Of a stretch of 25,976 nt of DNA, positions 62 to 17,957 are shown one piece after another. Within the stretch, counting starts at the first letter, position 1. Each line of letters starts with the position of its first letter. Below the pieces are notes generated by a model, which saw only the letters and a list, made by a program, of their open reading frames with translations, searched no databases and was not told the DNA's origin. The DNA lies in UHGV virus genome UHGV-1612078, one strand, 5' to 3'. A program made the position numbers and the translations under genes. This DNA comes from a virus.

Positions 62-136
62 GGCCCTGTAGCTGGAAGGTTCAAGCAAGCGACTCATAAT
101 CGCCAGATGGTGGTTCAATTCCACCCAGGGCCACCA
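62..136 (+). tRNA. tRNA-Ile (anticodon CAU, lysidine type; AUA-reading)
   Basis: Acceptor ggccctg/cagggcc, anticodon stem-loop gcgaCTCATAAtcgc as I recall for E. coli ileX and T4 tRNA-Ile, T-loop ttcaatt, encoded CCA. Confidence 0.8.
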
Positions 137-145
137 AATTAATTT

Positions 146-232
146 GGGGAGTTATCCCGTAGAGGTAGCGGTGTGGACTGTAAATCCATTGTCATTGCGA
201 CTCGGGTGGTTCGACTCCACCACTCCCCACCA
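146..232 (+). tRNA. tRNA-Tyr (anticodon GUA), class II with long variable arm
   Basis: Acceptor ggggagt/actcccc, anticodon arm gtgga-cTGTAaa-tccat (loop as I recall for E. coli tRNA-Tyr), about 15-nt variable arm, T-arm ggtgg-ttcgact-ccacc, encoded CCA. D-arm pairing is imperfect. Confidence 0.6.
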
Positions 233-236
233 ATTT

Positions 237-311
237 GGATGTGTAGCTCAATGGCAGAGCGATCGCCTGTTAAGCGATTGGTTATAGGTTCGAATCCTAT
301 CACGTCCGCCA
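237..311 (+). tRNA. tRNA-Asn (anticodon GUU)
   Basis: Full cloverleaf: acceptor ggatgtg/cacgtcc (one G-U), D-arm gctc/gagc, anticodon arm atcgc-cTGTTaa-gcgat, T-arm atagg-ttcgaat-cctat, encoded CCA. Confidence 0.8.
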
Positions 312-425
312 AATTTGTGACAACTGTCACATTAATATCTACTTGACGCGATTATAGGGGTTGAACTGATCACTCTTCTCTTAATTTCGTGTGAAGACAT
401 CTTGATTGTTGGAGTAGGTATTAAT

Positions 426-501
426 GTGGCCGTAGTTCAGTTGGTAGAACTCGAGATTGTGATTCTCGTAGTCATGGGTTCGACTCCCATCGGTCACCCC
501 A
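426..501 (+). tRNA. tRNA-His (anticodon GUG)
   Basis: Acceptor gtggccg/cggtcac, D-arm gttc/gaac, anticodon arm cgaga-ttGTGat-tctcg, T-arm atggg-ttcgact-cccat, discriminator C plus CCA. No encoded G-1 is seen. Confidence 0.7.
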
Positions 502-505
502 ATTA

Positions 506-581
506 CGGGGCATAGCTCAGAAGGAAGAGCAAGGACCTTCTAAGTCCTAGGTCGTAGGTTCGATCCCTACTGCCTCGACCA
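506..581 (+). tRNA. tRNA-Arg (anticodon UCU)
   Basis: Acceptor cggggca/tgcctcg, D-arm gctc/gagc, anticodon arm aggac-cTTCTaa-gtcct, T-arm gtagg-ttcgatc-cctac, encoded CCA. T4 tRNA-Arg also has UCU. Confidence 0.8.
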
Positions 582-4488: not shown

Positions 4489-4969
4489 TTTTAAAAACTC
4501 GCTGGTATGATTTAGATGATGGGGACGATGGCATTTCAGTTGATAGAGTTGACTGGAATGGTTGTTCCGAAGATATGAAAAATTTGTTGATTAGGGAGTT
4601 TAGAATGGGATATCAAGCAGCTAAGCCATCTACTATAACAGACGATAAATTCGTGTGTATTCAAAACGGTCGTGCTAAGTTAACGAACGCTGAATGGTTT
4701 ACGGATAAGAATATGCTTCTGTGGTATATCATTAGTCTTCCTGTGTCATCATTCGTATTTTACTTCTTTGGAAAAAATCCAATGGACAGAATAGGAGATT
4801 GGGTTCTTTGTACTATATTTGTTAATATTTTGACAGCAGCAATATTATCTGGGATATGGTGTGTGTTCATTGAAATGCCATGGCGTTTACGCAGACAACA
4901 AAAGATTTTTGATGAAAAGAAATATACTCAAAATTTAAATAACTTTATCACTGAATGCAGGAAATTAAA

Positions 4970-4973
<4 letters not shown>
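4485..4973 (+). CDS. small membrane protein, paralog 3
   Basis: N-terminal soluble region then hydrophobic segments. C-terminal NFITECRKLK. ATGA overlap with the preceding gene. Confidence 0.6.
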
Positions 4974-5942
<969 letters not shown>

Positions 5943-7887: not shown

Positions 7888-8108
7888 TGGCAAAGATAAT
7901 TATTGAAGGTTCTAAAGATGTGCTAAATGCTTTCGCAGAATGGTTTAGTAATTCAGGCGAACAGCAATTTAATGAAGCGTGGAATATGGGTGATATTAGT
8001 GGAATTTATCCTACGACAGAAATTTCTGTTCAGGGATATGGCATTCATGAACCTATTCGTTTAGTTGAATATGATTTATGTACTGGTGAGGAAGTCAAAT
8101 ATGATTGA
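7887..8108 (+). CDS. hypothetical protein (73 aa)
   Basis: Start overlaps the upstream stop (taATG). Confidence 0.5.
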   Translation: MAKIIIEGSKDVLNAFAEWFSNSGEQQFNEAWNMGDISGIYPTTEISVQGYGIHEPIRLVEYDLCTGEEVKYD

Positions 8109-8367
8109 AGACATTAAGGGTTATAAGCCACATACTGAAGAGAAAATCGGTAAAGTGAATGCTATCAAAGATGCTGAAGTTCGTTTAGGACTTATCTTTG
8201 ACGCTTTATATGACGAATTCTGGGAAGCACTAGATAATTGTGAAGACTATGAATTCGCGAAGAATTATGCCGAAAGCCTCGATCAGTTAACTATTGCTAA
8301 AACGAAACTCAAAGAAGCCAGTATGTGGGCTTGTCGTGCAGTGTTCCAACCAGAGGAAAAATACTAA
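8101..8367 (+). CDS. hypothetical small acidic protein (88 aa); sits where T4 has vs.3/vs.4
   Basis: SD gaggaag then ATG 8101. Lies two genes upstream of regB. The positional equivalence to T4 vs.4 is inference only. Confidence 0.5.
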
Positions 8368-8645
8368 TGGCTCAATTAAGCGCAGGGTTTGGTTATGAGT
8401 ATTATACTGCCCCTCGTCGTGTATCTGTTGCTCCTAAGAAAATTCAAAGTCTTGATGACTTCCAGGAAGTAGTTCGTAACGCTTTCCAGGACTATGCACG
8501 TTATCTTAAAGAAGATTCACAGGACTGTCTCGAAGAAGATGAAATTGCTTACTATGAGCAACGTCTTGAACAGCTCAAAAATCTACATGAGGTTCGTGCA
8601 GAAGTTTCAAAGTCTATGAATAAATTGATTAGATTTAAAGAATAA
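8367..8645 (+). CDS. hypothetical protein (92 aa)
   Basis: SD gagg then ATG 8367. Immediately upstream of the regB promoter. Confidence 0.5.
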
Positions 8646-8647
8646 CT

Positions 8648-8677
8648 GTTTACTTTTCCTCTTGACTGTGGTATAAT
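8648..8677 (+). promoter_or_regulatory. early promoter for regB
   Basis: GTTTAC at 8648-8653, 18-bp spacer, extended -10 TGgTATAAT at 8669-8677. Confidence 0.6.
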
Positions 8678-8704
8678 TTTTCTATCAGTTAAGAGGAGAA
8701 CAAC

Positions 8705-9166
8705 ATGACTATCAATACAGAAGTTTTTATCCGTCGAAATAAGCTTCGTCGTCACTTTGAGTCGGAGTTTCGTCAAATTAACAATGAGATTCGTGAGGCA
8801 TCAAAAGCAGCAGGGGTCTCATCGTTTCATCTAAAATATTCTCAACATCTTCTTGATCGCGCAATTCAACGGGAGATTGATGAGACATATGTTTTTGAAT
8901 TATTCCATAAAATAAAAGACCATGTTTTAGAAGTTAATGAATTCCTGAGTATGCCTCCGCGTCCTGACATTGACGAGGATTTTATTGATGGGGTTGAATA
9001 TCGTCCTGGACGTTTAGAAATCACAGATGGAAATCTTTGGCTTGGATTTACAGTTTGTAAACCTAATGCGAAGTTCAAAGACCCGTCGCTTCAATGCAGG
9101 ATGGCAATTATTAACAGTCGTCGTTTACCAGGAAAGGCTTCTAAAGCAGTAATTAAAACTCAATGA
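8705..9166 (+). CDS. regB: RegB endoribonuclease (cleaves GGAG in early mRNAs)
   Basis: 153-aa protein beginning MTINTEVFIRRNKLRRHFESEFRQ, matching my recollection of T4 RegB. SD gaggag. Confidence 0.9.
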   Translation: MTINTEVFIRRNKLRRHFESEFRQINNEIREASKAAGVSSFHLKYSQHLLDRAIQREIDETYVFELFHKIKDHVLEVNEFLSMPPRPDIDEDFIDGVEYRPGRLEITDGNLWLGFTVCKPNAKFKDPSLQCRMAIINSRRLPGKASKAVIKTQ

Positions 9167-9173
9167 GGTAAGC

Positions 9174-9719
9174 ATGAGAAAAGCACTACTCGCTGGTCTA
9201 TTGGCCATTTCAATGATGGCACATAGCTCCGAGCATACTTTCAGTAATGTCCAACTCGATAACATGCGTTACGCGTATCAATTCGGGGAACAATTTTCTA
9301 AGGATGGAAAATATAAAACACACAAAAATATCCACAAGAGTGGATTAGGTCATATAATGGCAGCTATTTTATGGCAAGAAAGCTCTGGCGGAGTTAATTT
9401 AAAATCTAAACCAAAGCATCACGCCTACGGAATGTTCCAAAATTATTTGCCTACCATGCGAGCGAGAGTTAAGGAACTTGGTTATAATATGACCGATGCT
9501 GAAATAAAAAGAATGTTGAATAAACGATCCAATTCAGCTTCCTGGGCGTACATTGAACTTTCTTATTGGTTAAATATACATAAGGGCGATATAAGAAAAG
9601 CAATATCCTCTTATAATTCGGGATGGAATGTTAAAGCTGGTTCTAAATATGCTTCTGAAGTCCTAGAAAAGGCTAATTACCTTAAAAATAATAAACTTTT
9701 GGAAATAGTAAATGACTAA
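9174..9719 (+). CDS. secreted protein, vs.1-like, possibly lytic-transglycosylase-related
   Basis: N-terminal signal peptide MRKALLAGLLAISMMAHS. Motif LWQESSGG. Position after regB matches T4 vs.1. Confidence 0.55.
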   Translation: MRKALLAGLLAISMMAHSSEHTFSNVQLDNMRYAYQFGEQFSKDGKYKTHKNIHKSGLGHIMAAILWQESSGGVNLKSKPKHHAYGMFQNYLPTMRARVKELGYNMTDAEIKRMLNKRSNSASWAYIELSYWLNIHKGDIRKAISSYNSGWNVKAGSKYASEVLEKANYLKNNKLLEIVND

Positions 9720-10059
9720 AATTTTGGTTTTATGTATAGGATTAATTTCATTTTCTGCTTCTGCGTCAGCAGATACATCATATACTGAAATTAGAGAATA
9801 TGTAAACCGCACTGCGGCAGATTATTGTGGGAAAAATAAAGCATGCCAAGCTGAATTTGCACAGAAATTAATATATGCATATAAAGACGGAGAAAGAGAT
9901 AAATCAAGCAGATACAAAAACGATACATTGTTAAAACGATATGCTAAAAAGTGGAATACCTTAGAATGCTCAGTTGCGGAGGAGAAAGATAAAGCCGCTT
10001 GTCATTCAATGGTTGACCGTTTGGTAGATTCTTATAATCGAGGATTGAGTACTAGATGA
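9712..10059 (+). CDS. Vs-like protein (valyl-tRNA synthetase modifier position), signal-peptide bearing
   Basis: 115 aa with hydrophobic N-terminus. Assigned by synteny (regB, vs.1, vs, tk.x, tk). Sequence identity to T4 Vs was not verified. Confidence 0.45.
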   Translation: MTKILVLCIGLISFSASASADTSYTEIREYVNRTAADYCGKNKACQAEFAQKLIYAYKDGERDKSSRYKNDTLLKRYAKKWNTLECSVAEEKDKAACHSMVDRLVDSYNRGLSTR

Positions 10060-10523
10060 TTGTAAAATATATCAAGGGCGATGTTGTCGCCCTTTTCGCT
10101 GAAGGTAAAAATATTGCACATGGATGTAATTGTTTTCACACGATGAAAGCTGGAGTCGCAGGTCAATTAACTAAAGCTTTCCCTAAAATTCTAGAAGCTG
10201 ATAAATTACAGACTGAATGGGGTGATGTAACTAAACTTGGTTCTTACTCAGTTTATGAAAAATACTTTAGGACTCATAAAGCTTACTGCTTTAATCTTTA
10301 TACTCAATTTCAACCAGGGCCAAATTTTGAGTATTCCGCTTTAATGAATTGTATGTTAGAATTAAATGAGTTTGGTGAAAATAAACTAATTAAACCTACA
10401 ATCTATATGCCTAGGATTGGTGCAGGCATAGGTAAAGGGAACTGGGATATTATTGAGGGGATTTTAGATACGTATTCCTCTAAATTAGAAATTGTGATTG
10501 TTGATTGGGAACCGTTATTATGA
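10056..10523 (+). CDS. macrodomain-like (ADP-ribose binding/processing) protein
   Basis: IKGDVV...IAHGCNCFHTMKAGVAGQL parallels macro motif GDIT...VNAANxxLxGGGGVxGAI. IYMPRIGAGIGKGNW parallels the second macro motif (FPAISTGIYGYP). Confidence 0.5.
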   Translation: MIVKYIKGDVVALFAEGKNIAHGCNCFHTMKAGVAGQLTKAFPKILEADKLQTEWGDVTKLGSYSVYEKYFRTHKAYCFNLYTQFQPGPNFEYSALMNCMLELNEFGENKLIKPTIYMPRIGAGIGKGNWDIIEGILDTYSSKLEIVIVDWEPLL

Positions 10524-10732
10524 ATATACATTATCCACATCCATATGACCCAAAGAATAAGGCAGTAATTATTCGTCAATGGGAACGCATTTGTCGTACT
10601 AAATGCCCAATTAATAGTCCACATGATGTAGATAAAGACTACATTGGAACATTCGTTGAATATACCTTTATTGATAAGAAAGGTCGTAAACAGCATGTAG
10701 AAGAATACTGCTTAAAGGTGACATGGTTATGA
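10520..10732 (+). CDS. hypothetical protein (70 aa)
   Basis: ATGA start/stop overlap with the upstream gene. Confidence 0.45.
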   Translation: MNIHYPHPYDPKNKAVIIRQWERICRTKCPINSPHDVDKDYIGTFVEYTFIDKKGRKQHVEEYCLKVTWL

Positions 10733-10935
10733 GCCAAACTAGTATTCTTAAAAATGCCCACTGCGAAAAGTGTAAATGGCCGGTTGTTTTTGCTTTATGC
10801 AACGATGAAATGGTTTGTGATTTCGATTATTGGTGCTATTGTTCTAATAAAGGATGCATCAATCATAAAGGTGAAGGATTTTATTCGGGATTTTATCCTT
10901 ATCCAGATTTCGTTAAAGAAGGTAAACCGAAATGA
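10729..10935 (+). CDS. Cys-rich small protein (probable Zn-binding)
   Basis: CEKC...CNDEMVCDFDYWCYCSNKGC cysteine pattern. ATGA overlap. Confidence 0.45.
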   Translation: MSQTSILKNAHCEKCKWPVVFALCNDEMVCDFDYWCYCSNKGCINHKGEGFYSGFYPYPDFVKEGKPK

Positions 10936-11105
10936 ATAGTTCTGAGTTACAATATGAAGTGTTACGTGAACTTGATAATTTAATTGAACTCGCTGTTAAT
11001 AAAGGTTTTGCCATTGGAATTGGTCAAAAAGATACTGATCATTTAACTGTGGAAATATTTAAGCAAAAGCGAATTATTTTAAAACTTCTGGAAATTAATA
11101 TATGA
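10932..11105 (+). CDS. hypothetical small protein (57 aa)
   Basis: ATGA-coupled ORF found by manual translation (MNSSELQYEVLRELDNLIELAVNKG...). Below the track length cutoff. Confidence 0.4.
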   Translation: MNSSELQYEVLRELDNLIELAVNKGFAIGIGQKDTDHLTVEIFKQKRIILKLLEINI

Positions 11106-11287
11106 GCCTAAGCAAAGAACAAAAAGACAAACTCTTTTCTCTTATCCACGAAGTTATGGATAAAAATAGTGAATTGGAAAAAGTTTGTAATGAATGCGGT
11201 CCTTTTAGTGCAAACGAGTACGAAGAACTTTCTAAAGAATTCGATAATAAAGAACAAGAACTTATTAATTATATAAATTCCTTATGA
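11102..11287 (+). CDS. small helical protein, paralog family A
   Basis: MSLSKEQKDKLFSLIHEV... paralogous to the next gene. Confidence 0.5.
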   Translation: MSLSKEQKDKLFSLIHEVMDKNSELEKVCNECGPFSANEYEELSKEFDNKEQELINYINSL

Positions 11288-11472
11288 TTACTCGCGAACA
11301 AAAGAACGAAATATTATTTTTAGTTGGTGAAATTATTAGTTTAGAAAAGGATTTGTCTTTTGAAATATCTTCTGAATATGGAGATGCCGAAACATATTAC
11401 GAATTAGTAAAATCTATCGATAAAGCTGAAAATGATTTAGAAACATATTTAGAAAATTTAACTAAGGACTAA
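11284..11472 (+). CDS. small helical protein, paralog family A
   Basis: MITREQKNEILFLVGEI... shares the EQK..LF.L..E pattern with the preceding ORF. Confidence 0.5.
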   Translation: MITREQKNEILFLVGEIISLEKDLSFEISSEYGDAETYYELVKSIDKAENDLETYLENLTKD

Positions 11473-11473
11473 A

Positions 11474-12055
11474 ATGGCGAGTTTAATTTTTACTTATGCA
11501 GCAATGAATGCTGGAAAATCTGCTTCTCTTTTGACTGCTGCACATAATTATAAAGAACGCGGAATGAGTGTATTAGTTCTTAAGCCTGCTATTGATACTC
11601 GTGATTCTGTCTGTGAAGTCGTTTCTCGCATTGGAATTAAGCAGGAAGCGAATATTATTACGGATGATATGGATATTTTCGAGTTCTATAAATGGGCTGA
11701 AGCACAAAAAGATATTCATTGCGTATTTGTAGATGAAGCTCAGTTTTTAAAAACTGAACAGGTGCATCAATTAAGCCGAATTGTTGATACATATAATGTT
11801 CCTGTTATGGCTTATGGGCTAAGGACTGATTTCGCTGGAAAATTATTTGAAGGTTCTAAAGAACTTTTAGCGATTGCAGATAAACTTATTGAACTAAAGG
11901 CAGTTTGTCATTGCGGCAAAAAAGCGATTATGACAGCTCGATTAATGGAAGATGGAACACCAGTTAAAGAAGGTAATCAAATCTGTATTGGTGATGAAAT
12001 TTATGTTTCTTTGTGTAGAAAACATTGGAATGAATTAACTAAAAAGCTCGGTTAG
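11474..12055 (+). CDS. tk: thymidine kinase
   Basis: 193 aa. P-loop AMNAGKSASLL, Walker B VFVDEAQF, C-terminal Zn motif CHCGKK...C. Matches my recollection of T4 Tk. Confidence 0.9.
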   Translation: MASLIFTYAAMNAGKSASLLTAAHNYKERGMSVLVLKPAIDTRDSVCEVVSRIGIKQEANIITDDMDIFEFYKWAEAQKDIHCVFVDEAQFLKTEQVHQLSRIVDTYNVPVMAYGLRTDFAGKLFEGSKELLAIADKLIELKAVCHCGKKAIMTARLMEDGTPVKEGNQICIGDEIYVSLCRKHWNELTKKLG

Positions 12056-12064
12056 TGCAAAAGT

Positions 12065-12072
12065 TATAAATA
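12065..12072 (+). promoter_or_regulatory. possible T4 late promoter (TATAAATA)
   Basis: Exact TATAAATA octamer upstream of the rI.1-like/rI genes. Confidence 0.35.
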
Positions 12073-12097
12073 GGTTTATCTAACTAAAGGGGTATAT

Positions 12098-12310
12098 ATG
12101 CTACAATTAACTGAAAAGCAACTTCGCAATCTTACTGTGCTTCAATTAGATGAAATTCGTAGGGAAGTTGGAAATATCATTTCAGCTTTGCGTCGAGAAG
12201 TATCACTCAACCAATCTCCGGCAGACTATACTAGATTGCGAAATTTTGAAAAATACCTTGATAAAGTTAAGGCCGTGCATCGGCATAAAGTAAATACAGG
12301 ACAAAAATGA
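12098..12310 (+). CDS. hypothetical protein (rI.1 position)
   Basis: SD aagggg then ATG. Lies between tk and rI. Confidence 0.5.
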
Positions 12311-12322
12311 TAGGAGGCCTTT

Positions 12323-12616
12323 ATGGCCTTAAAAGCAACGGCACTATTTGCCATGCTAGGATTAGCGTTTGCTTTATCTCCACCAATTGAAGCGAATGTC
12401 GATCCTCATTTTGATAAATTTATGGAATCTGGTATTAGACACGTTTATATGCTTTTTGAAAACAAAAGCGTAGAATCATCTGAACAGTTCTATAGTTTTA
12501 TGCGAACGACTTATAAAAATGACCCATGCTCTTCCGATTTTGAATGTATAGAGCGAGGCGCGGAGATGGCACAATCATACGCTAGAATTATGAACATTAA
12601 ATTGGAGACTGAATGA
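12323..12616 (+). CDS. rI: lysis inhibition regulator RI
   Basis: 97 aa, MALKATALFAMLGLAFALSPPIEANVDPHFDKF..., signal-anchor N-terminus. Matches my recollection of T4 RI. Confidence 0.9.
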   Translation: MALKATALFAMLGLAFALSPPIEANVDPHFDKFMESGIRHVYMLFENKSVESSEQFYSFMRTTYKNDPCSSDFECIERGAEMAQSYARIMNIKLETE

Positions 12617-12999
12617 AATTCAGCGACTTTTCACAAAGTGGAAAACCTTCAAAGGCAGATGAATACTTAGGTTTATTAATGGCTGCACAAGCTTATTTTC
12701 ATTCTGCGCATTTTGAAACTAAAAGTTATGCTAGACACAAAGCATACGATTTTATTTTCTCTGAGTTGCCAGATTTGATTGATAAATTTGGTGAGCAATA
12801 TTTGGGGTATTCTGGTAGAAAATACACGCCTTCTATTCCAGATGCCAGTAAACTTCCTACCGACACAATTAAAATGATTGATCGCATACTAGACCAATCT
12901 AACAGCATTTATAAAGAAATGCCTCCAGCCATTCAAAGCACGATAGATGATATTACTGGGATGTTTTACCAGAGTAAGTATCTTCTTTCCCTCGAATAA
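12613..12999 (+). CDS. rI.-1-like protein
   Basis: ATGA-coupled to rI. Position as in T4. Confidence 0.7.
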
Positions 13000-15403: not shown

Positions 15404-15865
15404 ATGATTATTAATGAAAACTCTTGGCACTATAAATTATTCAAACTGTTTAACGATGAATGGCAACGACCTAAGACACTATGCGCATATTTTTGGTCTA
15501 TTGCCATTCCTACATTTTTCGTTTCTATTTTTGGGTGTGCTATACTCGTAGGGCTAACAATTATTTGTGCAGAAAGCCTACAACGTTGGCTTATTTTCGG
15601 TAGTTTATGGACTCTTCTTCCATCAGCATTTATACTTGCGCTTTTGGTTGTTTTACTTATTATCGGTTCATTTGTTATTCCTGCACATTTGCATGAAAAA
15701 TATAAAGATTATAAATGGAAAAAGGATTATGCTTTACACGTAGAAAATATTGATAGGGCGTATAAAGGTTTACCTCCTATTCAACCCAAGAAATCGATTA
15801 TCGTTGAATTTTTAAAAGCTCGTAAAGCTAAAGTATGTCCTGTTATTGAATATAAGGCTGAATGA
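15404..15865 (+). CDS. membrane protein (2 predicted TM segments)
   Basis: Hydrophobic stretches FWSIAIPTFFVSIFGCAILVGLTIICA and LWTLLPSAFILALLVVLLIIGSFVI. Confidence 0.6.
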   Translation: MIINENSWHYKLFKLFNDEWQRPKTLCAYFWSIAIPTFFVSIFGCAILVGLTIICAESLQRWLIFGSLWTLLPSAFILALLVVLLIIGSFVIPAHLHEKYKDYKWKKDYALHVENIDRAYKGLPPIQPKKSIIVEFLKARKAKVCPVIEYKAE

Positions 15866-16875
15866 TGAAAACAGTAATGAAAAGCTATTTTGGTAGTCAT
15901 CTTTATGGAACTTCTACCCCAGAATCTGATGTAGATTTTAAAGAAATCTTTGTTCCTTCTGCTCGCGATATTCTTATCGGAAATGTTAAAGAGCATATGA
16001 GTAAAAACACTAACAACACATCATCTAAAAACACTAAAGATGATATTGACCATGAACTATACAGTCTTAAATATTTCTTTAAATTAGCAGCAGATGGTGA
16101 AACTGTAGCATTAGATATGCTTCACACTCCACCTGAACTAGTGGTTAAATCTGATTTGCCTGATGTGTGGAAGTTTATTCAAGACAACCGTTCTCGTTTT
16201 TATACGACTAACATGAAATCATATTTAGGATATGTCCGTAAGCAAGCTTCTAAATACGGTGTCAAGGGTTCTCGTTTGGCTGCATTACGTGATGTATTGA
16301 AAGTAGTTAATCAAATCCCTGAGCAATGGGTTGATTACCAAGAAGATGGTTCTATTAAGCAGCGTCGCACTAAAGTTGAAGATATTAAGCATCGTCTTCC
16401 AGAAAACGAATTCTGTGAATGGGTGTTCCATAATCATGAGAAAACAGGCCCACAAACGTTCTACACTGTGTTGGGTCGTAAATATCAGACAACGCTTTCT
16501 CTTATTGAGCTTAAGCAGTCACTGAACAAATTAGATGCTGAATATGGTGAACGTGCTCGTAAGGCTGAAGCCAATGAAGGTATTGACTGGAAAGCTCTGA
16601 GCCATGCTTGTCGTGGTGGACTTCAACTATTGGAAATTTACAAAACTGGCGACTTGATTTATCCACTCCAAGATGCTCCATTTATTCTCGACGTGAAGTT
16701 GGGTAAACATCCATTTAAAACAGTCCAAGAGTTTTTGGAAGATGTGGTCGATCAAGTAGAAGCAGCATCTACTGAAGCTTCTAAGAACGGTATGCAACAA
16801 AAAGTAGACATGAGTTTCTGGGATGACTTCCTTGAGAAGGTCTATCTTGAAAACCATCGAAGTTATTATAAATGA
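15862..16875 (+). CDS. Pol-beta-superfamily nucleotidyltransferase (predicted)
   Basis: N-terminal motif YFGSHLYGTSTPESDVDF fits hG[GS]x3Gx5SDhD. ATGA coupling to the upstream membrane-protein gene. Strong terminator immediately downstream. Confidence 0.65.
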   Translation: MMKTVMKSYFGSHLYGTSTPESDVDFKEIFVPSARDILIGNVKEHMSKNTNNTSSKNTKDDIDHELYSLKYFFKLAADGETVALDMLHTPPELVVKSDLPDVWKFIQDNRSRFYTTNMKSYLGYVRKQASKYGVKGSRLAALRDVLKVVNQIPEQWVDYQEDGSIKQRRTKVEDIKHRLPENEFCEWVFHNHEKTGPQTFYTVLGRKYQTTLSLIELKQSLNKLDAEYGERARKAEANEGIDWKALSHACRGGLQLLEIYKTGDLIYPLQDAPFILDVKLGKHPFKTVQEFLEDVVDQVEAASTEASKNGMQQKVDMSFWDDFLEKVYLENHRSYYK

Positions 16876-16877
16876 TA

Positions 16878-16901
16878 GGGAGCCTTCGGGCTCCCTTTTT
16901 A
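16878..16901 (+). terminator. rho-independent terminator
   Basis: gggagcc-TTCG-ggctccc followed by TTTTT. Confidence 0.7.
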
Positions 16902-16924
16902 TTTCAAAAATTTTTCACAAAGTT

Positions 16925-16954
16925 GTTTACAAGCATAAAGCTTTATGGTACTAT
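16925..16954 (+). promoter_or_regulatory. T4-type early promoter
   Basis: GTTTAC at 16925-16930, 18-bp spacer, TGg-TACTAT. Leader ggtactatacaactatcaact as at 2118 and 19082. Confidence 0.55.
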
Positions 16955-16988
16955 ACAACTATCAACTGATACGGATTTGGAGAATAAA

Positions 16989-17957
16989 ATGAAAACTGTA
17001 ACTATCAATAAGGGTATTTACTTCGGTAAAGAAATCTCTGGAACTTTTGAGCTCTTAGGCGAATGGTTCCCAGATAATGCTCCGGTAGATGCGCAAGGAG
17101 ATGGTAAAGTTTTTGTTGAAATTGACGGTAAGCGTCGCGGTGTTTGGGTTTACAAATCAGACATTTCATATGATGGTGTAAAAGTTGAAGAAGTTAAAGA
17201 ATCATATGAAGATATGAAAACCCGCATTAATAAAAGATTTAATGTTATGGGAATGATGACGAATGGTATTATTAACGGAAACATTCGTTCATTAATTATC
17301 TCAGGAGCAGCAGGCATTGGTAAAACGTATTCTTTAGATAAAGCTTTAAATAAAGCAAATGATATTGGATACATTGAGTATAAAAGCATTAATGGTAAAA
17401 TCTCTGGTATCGGTCTTTATGAGCAGCTTTGGAATAATCGTGAAGAGAATTCTGTCCTTTTGATTGATGATGTGGATGTTTTCTCTGATATGGACATTCT
17501 TAATCTTCTGAAAGCTGCTCTGGACACTGGAGAGACCCGTAAAGTCTGCTGGAGCACTGCATCTTCTTACTTAGAAGAAAAAGGCATTGAGCGTGAGTTT
17601 GAATTTAAAGGAACGATTGTTTTTATCACAAACGTTGACATTGACCGCGAATTAGACCGTGGTACTAAACTTGCTCCACATTTACAAGCATTAGTGTCCC
17701 GCTCAGTTTATTTGGATTTGGGTGTTCACACTAATGAAGAAATTATGGTCAGGGTTGAAGATGTTATTCTTTCAACTGACATGATGCAAAAGCGCGGTCT
17801 TTCTGATGAAGAAACTTATAAAGCATTATCATGGATGAAAGTCAATGTTAATCGTTTACGCAATGTTTCACTGCGTACTGCGCTTTATCTTGCTGACTTT
17901 ATTATGACCGACAAAAACGGTTGGGAAGAAATTGCTGAAACGGTATTATTAAAATGA
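16989..17957 (+). CDS. P-loop ATPase, AAA-like (Walker A SGAAGIGKT, Walker B LLIDDVD)
   Basis: ATG 16989 after SD ggag. Walker A/B and a candidate sensor-1 (IVFITN). The upstream track extension is translated leader. Confidence 0.7.
   Translation: MKTVTINKGIYFGKEISGTFELLGEWFPDNAPVDAQGDGKVFVEIDGKRRGVWVYKSDISYDGVKVEEVKESYEDMKTRINKRFNVMGMMTNGIINGNIRSLIISGAAGIGKTYSLDKALNKANDIGYIEYKSINGKISGIGLYEQLWNNREENSVLLIDDVDVFSDMDILNLLKAALDTGETRKVCWSTASSYLEEKGIEREFEFKGTIVFITNVDIDRELDRGTKLAPHLQALVSRSVYLDLGVHTNEEIMVRVEDVILSTDMMQKRGLSDEETYKALSWMKVNVNRLRNVSLRTALYLADFIMTDKNGWEEIAETVLLK

Follow-up and report, generated by a model that had tools for sequence, protein, structure and literature searches.

The tk.4 orthologue of an RB14-related Tequatrovirus encodes a macrodomain that probably erases DarT2 marks from DNA

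DarTG systems block phages via ADP-ribosylation of DNA, and a phage gene for a putative ADP-ribose-binding protein raises the question of whether its product undoes this modification. The question arises at a 155-aa ORF (10056..10523, + strand) in the 25,976-nt stretch of phage DNA analysed here (UHGV virus genome UHGV-1612078; hereafter the window), which a sequence-only reading had described as a macrodomain-like protein of the tk-proximal region that might reverse DarT-type defence. We identify the ORF as an orthologue of T4 tk.4, for which an anti-DarTG2 role is already published, and consider it likely that the encoded protein is a single-domain macrodomain erasing DarT2 marks from DNA.

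The tk.4 gene, its neighbourhood, and the T4 phenotype

The first 25 kb of the window are 96% identical to Escherichia phage RB14 over 97% of the query, and more than 400 other T4-like genomes match the same region over at least 80% (megablast). Since the local gene order equals that of the annotated T4 and RB14 records, the ORF is tk.4 of a Tequatrovirus related to RB14, T6, and T4. It lies within a string of same-strand genes in the order regB, vs.1, vs, tk.4, tk.3, two small ORFs, tk.2, tk.1, and tk, with 4–10 nt overlaps at most junctions. The features of this region are as follows, with gene names taken from the corresponding T4 and RB14 annotations.

8649..8677, + strand: sigma-70-like promoter candidate upstream of regB (TTTACT-17-TATAAT, extended -10 TG)
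8705..12055, + strand: ten closely packed genes (from ORF coordinates and junction sequences)
8705..9166, + strand: regB
9174..9719, + strand: vs.1
9712..10059, + strand: vs
10056..10523, + strand: tk.4 / adfM CDS (155 aa, ATG to TGA, single macrodomain)
10113..10169, + strand: loop-1 signature IAHGCNCFHTMKAGVAGQL (residues 20–38, holding H22, G23, N25, and G33)
10293..10307, + strand: NLYTQ motif (residues 80–84, with Q84 at the catalytic position)
10401..10445, + strand: loop-2 (phosphate-binding) signature IYMPRIGAGIGKGNW (residues 116–130)
10520..10732, + strand: tk.3
10723..10935, + strand: small ORF between tk.3 and tk.2 (RB14 RB32ORF111c; Pfam Phage_zn_bind PF23895, E = 2.4e-29)
10932..11105, + strand: small ORF between tk.3 and tk.2 (RB14 RB32ORF110c; no Pfam match)
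11474..12055, + strand: tk (thymidine kinase), five small ORFs downstream of tk.4 and followed by rI.1 and rI

The tk.4 start codon and the stop codon of the preceding ORF share an ATGA (10056–10059), as do the tk.4 stop codon and the start codon of the following ORF (10520–10523). Both motifs quoted in the sequence-only reading fall inside the ORF, and the tk-proximal location that it had assigned is correct. The protein is identical to T4 Tk.4 at 152 of 155 positions (98%) and of equal length, the substitutions from window to T4 being V10I, K31G, and A32S, and the two genes differ at 13 synonymous and 3 non-synonymous codons. The order vs, tk.4, tk.3 is identical in the window, T4, and RB14, and a megablast search with tk.4 matched 383 phage records, 379 of them over at least 80% of the gene. 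Because of the Pfam and PHROG matches (below), the phage records, the synonymous excess, and the conserved motifs, a chance ORF is ruled out and tk.4 is a real gene.

The site at 8649..8677 is the top-scoring + strand site in a sigma-70-like scan of 8000..12700 and possibly serves as an early promoter for the tk.4-containing string, but we treat it as a candidate only, since the 20 sigma-70-like sites in this interval are not in excess of the 19.0 expected from shuffles. Separately, a GC-rich inverted repeat of 8 bp without mismatches (AAGGGCGA/TCGCCCTT, 10074..10094) stands 18 nt into tk.4 in an otherwise AT-rich genome and resembles a minus-strand terminator. As a regulatory hairpin it was rejected, because the 80 nt around it (10036..10115) do not fold better than shuffles (z = -0.77).

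The function of the T4 gene was addressed in a HIDEN-SEQ preprint of November 2025, in which tk.4 was the single significant match when a T4 transposon library was grown on a DarTG2 host, and a clean tk.4 knockout made T4 DarTG2-sensitive (bioRxiv 10.1101/2025.11.20.689424). The gene was renamed adfM (anti-DarT factor Macrodomain); its authors noted a structural likeness to Mtb DarG and wrote that enzymatic removal of ADP-ribose from DNA by AdfM "seems likely", with the genetics coming from this preprint and one DarTG2 system (bioRxiv 10.1101/2025.11.20.689424). A further factor had been predicted by the finding that T4 without adfA and adfN remains DarTG2-resistant (PMC11825919). The main idea of the sequence-only reading, reversal of DarT-type defence by this protein, is thus supported and already known, because the T4 knockout experiment is published for an orthologue three residues away; the growth of a deletion mutant on a DarTG host, which had been proposed as a check, was carried out by others for T4. 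The alternative in that reading, binding of NAD-derived signals, gained no support, nor did a link to the ADP-ribosyltransferases of T4 itself. T4 is a sister phage with the same gene, but the DarTG2 phenotype comes from the T4 allele alone, and the window allele differs from it in loop-1.

Expression of the gene has been recorded in T2, where the Tk.4 protein was seen by proteomics in infected cells and RIL-seq recovered the tk.4 transcript together with the host sRNA ArcZ, as one of five phage mRNAs (10.64898/2026.06.19.733364). The same preprint mislabels tk.4 as a "putative thymidine kinase" and reports its protein level to be unchanged in a ΔarcZ host (10.64898/2026.06.19.733364).

Macrodomain class and active site

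Similarity to macrodomains, proposed earlier as a check, was found by both profile and fold searches. Pfam Macro (PF01661) matched with 25 bits vs. a gathering score of 22 (E = 1.9e-5, profile positions 2–113 of 118), PHROG 335 matched the ORF with E = 9e-64, and a single-sequence search of PDB sequences retrieved BT1257 (E = 1.7e-8), Poa1p, SCO6735, TARG1, and DarG. A family profile derived from alignment A1, which combines the window protein and T4 Tk.4 with 117 homologues from databases, matched BT1257 (4e-20), Poa1p (2e-16), SCO6735 (2.3e-16), TARG1 (4.5e-16), Mtb DarG (3.6e-14), and Taq DarG (7.8e-13) in the PDB; with this profile, coronavirus and alphavirus macrodomains reached ~1e-3 at best. 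The AlphaFold2 model was built from a second alignment (A2; 116 sequences, down to ~31% identity, with the T4 row left out of structure prediction) and has a pLDDT of 95.2, a pTM of 0.90, and the three-layer alpha/beta/alpha macro fold. The best 17 Foldseek matches of this model in the PDB were chains of TARG1, Poa1p, BT1257, and DarG, with TARG1 first, and the probability was 1.00 for all 50 best matches listed. Because its profile and fold neighbours are TARG1, DarG, Poa1p, SCO6735/BT1257, and ALC1, Tk.4 is a macrodomain of the ALC1/TARG1-like class.

The two signature regions named in the sequence-only reading are likewise conserved. The loop patterns N-x6-G-x-G-[VIL]-A and P-x-I-G-x-G are both present and predicted to bind ADP-ribose. 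Eight residues (G33, A35, N80, Y82, T83, Q84, P119, and G124) are invariant in all 116 sequences of the second alignment, and a further 16 are conserved in at least 90% of them (G8, H22, G23, C24, N25, C26, M30, D49, L61, G62, G88, I121, G122, G127, G128, and W130). Within loop-1, the counts are 111/116 for H22, 115/116 for both G23 and N25, and 116/116 for G33.

The catalytic position is where Tk.4 departs from the best-known members of its class. In a published structure-based alignment, Gln85 of SCO6735 corresponds to Lys84 of TARG1 and Lys80 of DarG (PMC9411070), and in our profile alignment Q84 of Tk.4 falls on TARG1 Lys84 ("ITKK") and on the Gln of SCO6735 and BT1257 ("IGQH"). Human TARG1/OARD1 uses a Lys84/Asp125 dyad, whereas Tk.4 has Q84 and, aligned with the catalytic Asp125, G126. 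In the same alignment, N25 of Tk.4 matches Asn27 of SCO6735, G23 matches Val25, and G124 matches Gly128. SCO6735 rescues DarT toxicity and is faster than both DarG and TARG1 at cleaving the thymidine-ADP-ribose that DarT makes on DNA; its Q85A/E mutants are inactive, N27S is nearly inactive, and G128E has reduced activity (PMC9411070). The mechanism proposed for it has Gln85, locked by Asn27, positioning the distal ribose, and the attack coming from a water bound to the backbone carbonyl of Val25 (PMC9411070).

SCO6735 of Streptomyces coelicolor (PDB 5E3B) and BT1257 of Bacteroides (2FG1/2AFC) are thus Gln-type, TARG1-like proteins that share the Gln, Asn, and Gly of Tk.4, but they are cellular, non-phage proteins with only ~25–29% identity to it and a longer loop of their own. 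Characteristic of the SCO6735/BT1257 subclass is a "mobile loop" that exceeds that of TARG1 and DarG by five residues, and its Lys-rich extension has been proposed to explain the high activity of SCO6735 on DNA (PMC9411070). Compared with the Tk.4 profile, BT1257 has an insertion of 6 residues after the Gln and SCO6735 one of 5, whereas TARG1 aligns there without a gap. Full membership of Tk.4 in this subclass was rejected, since it lacks the 5–6-residue-longer loop.

Identity with DarG was rejected as well. The macrodomain of DarTG2 (PDB 5M31/5M3E/5M3I/7OMU) has a catalytic lysine (Lys80 in Thermus aquaticus DarG) where Tk.4 has Gln84, and DarG combines a C-terminal DarT-binding domain with an adjacent darT, whereas Tk.4 has neither and is flanked by vs and tk.3. 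The curated NCBIfam DarG equivalog NF048014 scored 24.1 bits on Tk.4, far below its cut-off of 250, and the PADLOC DarG model scored 28.7 bits over model positions 2–145 of 329 only.

Two lysines stand out in the ligand-binding loops. Position 127 is Gly in 105 of 116 homologues and Lys in both the window protein and T4, and position 31 is Gly in 98 of 116, T4 included, whereas the window allele has Lys there, replacing the first Gly of the loop-1 pattern. Codons 31–32 (10146..10151) read AAA GCT (Lys-Ala) here vs. GGT TCA (Gly-Ser) in T4 and RB14, so that 5 of 6 nucleotides are changed; this is the sole clustered difference of tk.4 from T4/RB14 and has the look of a small mosaic patch, not of drift by point changes. 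The cluster with the K31 allele (P0001) holds 122 member sequences, and since the allele is this common, it is probably functional. We infer that the K31/A32 allele behaves like that of T4.

Proposed mechanism and alternative readings

In the mechanism that we propose, Tk.4 would be made, probably early in infection, as a free-standing single-domain ALC1/TARG1-like macrodomain. Its substrate would be single-stranded phage DNA in which the host toxin DarT2 has modified the thymidine of TNTC motifs with ADP-ribose; Tk.4 would bind this ADP-ribose between its two conserved loops and hydrolyse the ribose–thymine bond to release free ADP-ribose. Replicable DNA would thereby be restored, allowing the phage to escape DarTG2. 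In the active site, Asn25 would hold Gln84, which would orient the distal ribose so that a water activated by the protein backbone could attack it, and no catalytic lysine would be required. The chemistry of Tk.4 would thus probably follow that of SCO6735 rather than that of DarG, a lysine-independent route suggested by the match of the SCO6735 residues to Q84 (116/116), N25 (115/116), G124 (116/116), and G23 (115/116). We infer the enzymatic step, the thymidine specificity, and the Gln-based mechanism from analogy with this protein. Counting against the mechanism are the absence of both the Lys of DarG/TARG1 and the Asp of TARG1 (Q84 and G126 in Tk.4), the missing longer mobile loop of the SCO6735 type, and the presence of K31 and K127 in the ligand-binding loops.

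The alternatives differ in substrate or dispense with catalysis altogether. Tk.4 might erase ADP-ribosylation from protein or RNA, acting on Glu/Asp marks, on the marks of CmdT-type host ARTs, or on those of T4 Alt/ModA/ModB, with DarT2 reversal as one of its activities or a side activity; we judge this improbable. The marks of the Alt and Mod enzymes sit on arginine, and macrodomains are not known to cleave that linkage. TARG1, which acts on Glu/Asp-linked marks, is the top Foldseek match, but its Lys84/Asp125 dyad has no counterpart in Tk.4. With 2,737 phage records spread over many genera, the family may extend beyond the reach of DarTG2, which would agree with wider substrates, as would the fact that SCO6735 was assayed on both DNA and protein substrates (PMC9411070, figure legend). 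Yet in another paper SCO6735 is inactive on 2'-OH RNA ADP-ribosylation; on 5'-phosphate-linked RNA/DNA ADP-ribosylation it is inactive according to the results of that paper, whose discussion describes it as active on RNA phosphate ends (PMC11833690). Furthermore, HIDEN-SEQ found tk.4 with DarTG2 and not under the other conditions described (bioRxiv 10.1101/2025.11.20.689424).

Legacy annotations ("phosphatase, contains A1pp motif" and "regulator of RNase III") would instead make Tk.4 an ADP-ribose-1''-phosphate phosphatase or an O-acetyl-ADP-ribose deacetylase, acting on small NAD-derived molecules and not on DNA, but these names are homology transfers rather than the outcome of assays. The yeast phosphatase Poa1p has Ser where the family has its invariant Gln84, and neither activity would account for why T4 without tk.4 is sensitive to DarTG2 specifically. 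We know of no T4 pathway that makes Appr-1''-p and give such small-molecule activities little chance. A non-catalytic role is hardest to credit: Tk.4 would then bind DarT2 in the manner of the DarG C-terminal domain, AdfA, and AdfB, or act as a sponge for ADP-ribose-derived immune signals, whereas its 155 aa form one domain and include no DarT-binding domain, the DarG models matching over the N-terminal 145 positions only. The equivalents of the catalytic Gln, Asn, and Gly of SCO6735 are invariant or present in 115/116 of these diverse homologues, a near-complete conservation that is the pattern expected of an enzyme, and the closest characterised relatives are all hydrolases. The combination of DarTG2 phenotype, invariant catalytic-type residues, and single-domain architecture leads us to favour a DNA glycohydrolase.

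A Nudix hydrolase gene (4955..5410; Pfam NUDIX, E = 1.9e-13), which is nudE in RB14, lies ~5 kb from tk.4. T4 NudE is an enzyme reported to hydrolyse ADP-ribose; if it does, it could clear away the ADP-ribose that AdfM sets free.

Distribution, the second AdfM, and other genes of the window

A tblastn search (E ≤ 1e-5) found the tk.4 family in 2,737 of 50,697 phage records, among them T4-like phages of Escherichia, Klebsiella, Salmonella, Acinetobacter, Vibrio, and Aeromonas as well as Felixounavirus, Pseudomonas, Erwinia, and Streptomyces phages. One homologue, P0057, is labelled "Bacilli MAG" and sits in a T4-like phage block with Rnl1, a Dda-like helicase, Pnkp, and dCMP deaminase; on this one contig, no darT was found beside it, which had been sought as a sign of toxin-antitoxin capture.

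Phage T5 is DarTG2-sensitive (bioRxiv 10.1101/2025.11.20.689424; PMC11825919), and a six-frame HMM search of its whole genome detected no member of the Tk.4 family, the best match scoring 9.8 bits (E = 0.038), whereas the window ORF scores 208.9 bits. For this single phage, the result agrees with the model. The T5 region T5.102 to T5.105 (L005 6948..8595) holds two ORFs annotated as Sir2 (NAD-dependent deacetylase / ADP-ribosylase), an unrelated NAD-linked pair with no Tk.4 HMM match.

The name AdfM has been given to two distant relatives, T4 Tk.4 (Gln-type, November 2025 preprint) and PhiKZ gp104 (Lys-type, 2026). PhiKZ gp104 is a phage single macrodomain that counters DarTG2 and removes DarT2 marks in vitro, in a paper stating that no macrodomain Adf had yet been reported (Cell Rep 2026, PMC13309987). 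It is imported into the phage nucleus (PMC13309987) and is related to the Tk.4 family at ~18% identity (hhalign probability 96.8%, BLASTP E = 0.018). At the catalytic position it reads ..FPTK.. and is therefore Lys-type like DarG, which indicates that one name covers two different lineages.

A possible and more tentative extension is that T4-type AdfM forms a separate, largely phage-borne, Gln-type short-loop lineage in ~5% of sequenced phage genomes that is not a captured DarG. Its members would share lysine-independent, water-mediated hydrolysis of thymidine-ADP-ribose and maybe accept wider substrates, and variants like K31/A32 might tune specificity. T-even phages appear to hold a layered toolkit of AdfA, a toxin binder, AdfN, a NADAR protein for guanine marks, and AdfM, presumed to act on thymine marks. 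For annotation, the label adfM/tk.4, anti-DarTG2 macrodomain, would be more useful than "phosphatase" or "hypothetical protein". The remaining interest lies in a putative Gln-type mechanism without the DarG lysine in a widespread phage counter-defence protein, and in the loop variant.

Elsewhere in the window, the two small ORFs between tk.3 and tk.2 (10723..10935 and 10932..11105) are absent from T4 and present in RB14 and RB32. Three further features complete the list.

62..581: five tRNA genes, Met(CAT), Tyr, Asn, His, and Arg
15862..16875: nrdC.11 homologue (RlaP "RNA repair pathway" nucleotidyltransferase family, E = 9.3e-11)
16872..17957: nrdC.10 homologue, overlapping nrdC.11 (weak, below-threshold AAA/STAND-type NTPase matches)

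The nrdC.11 and nrdC.10 homologues may form a two-gene module. Among the tRNAs, that for Met(CAT) is probably Ile-type, as annotated in RB14, and the tRNA-His gene (426..501) is an addition to the tRNAs annotated at the matching place in RB14.
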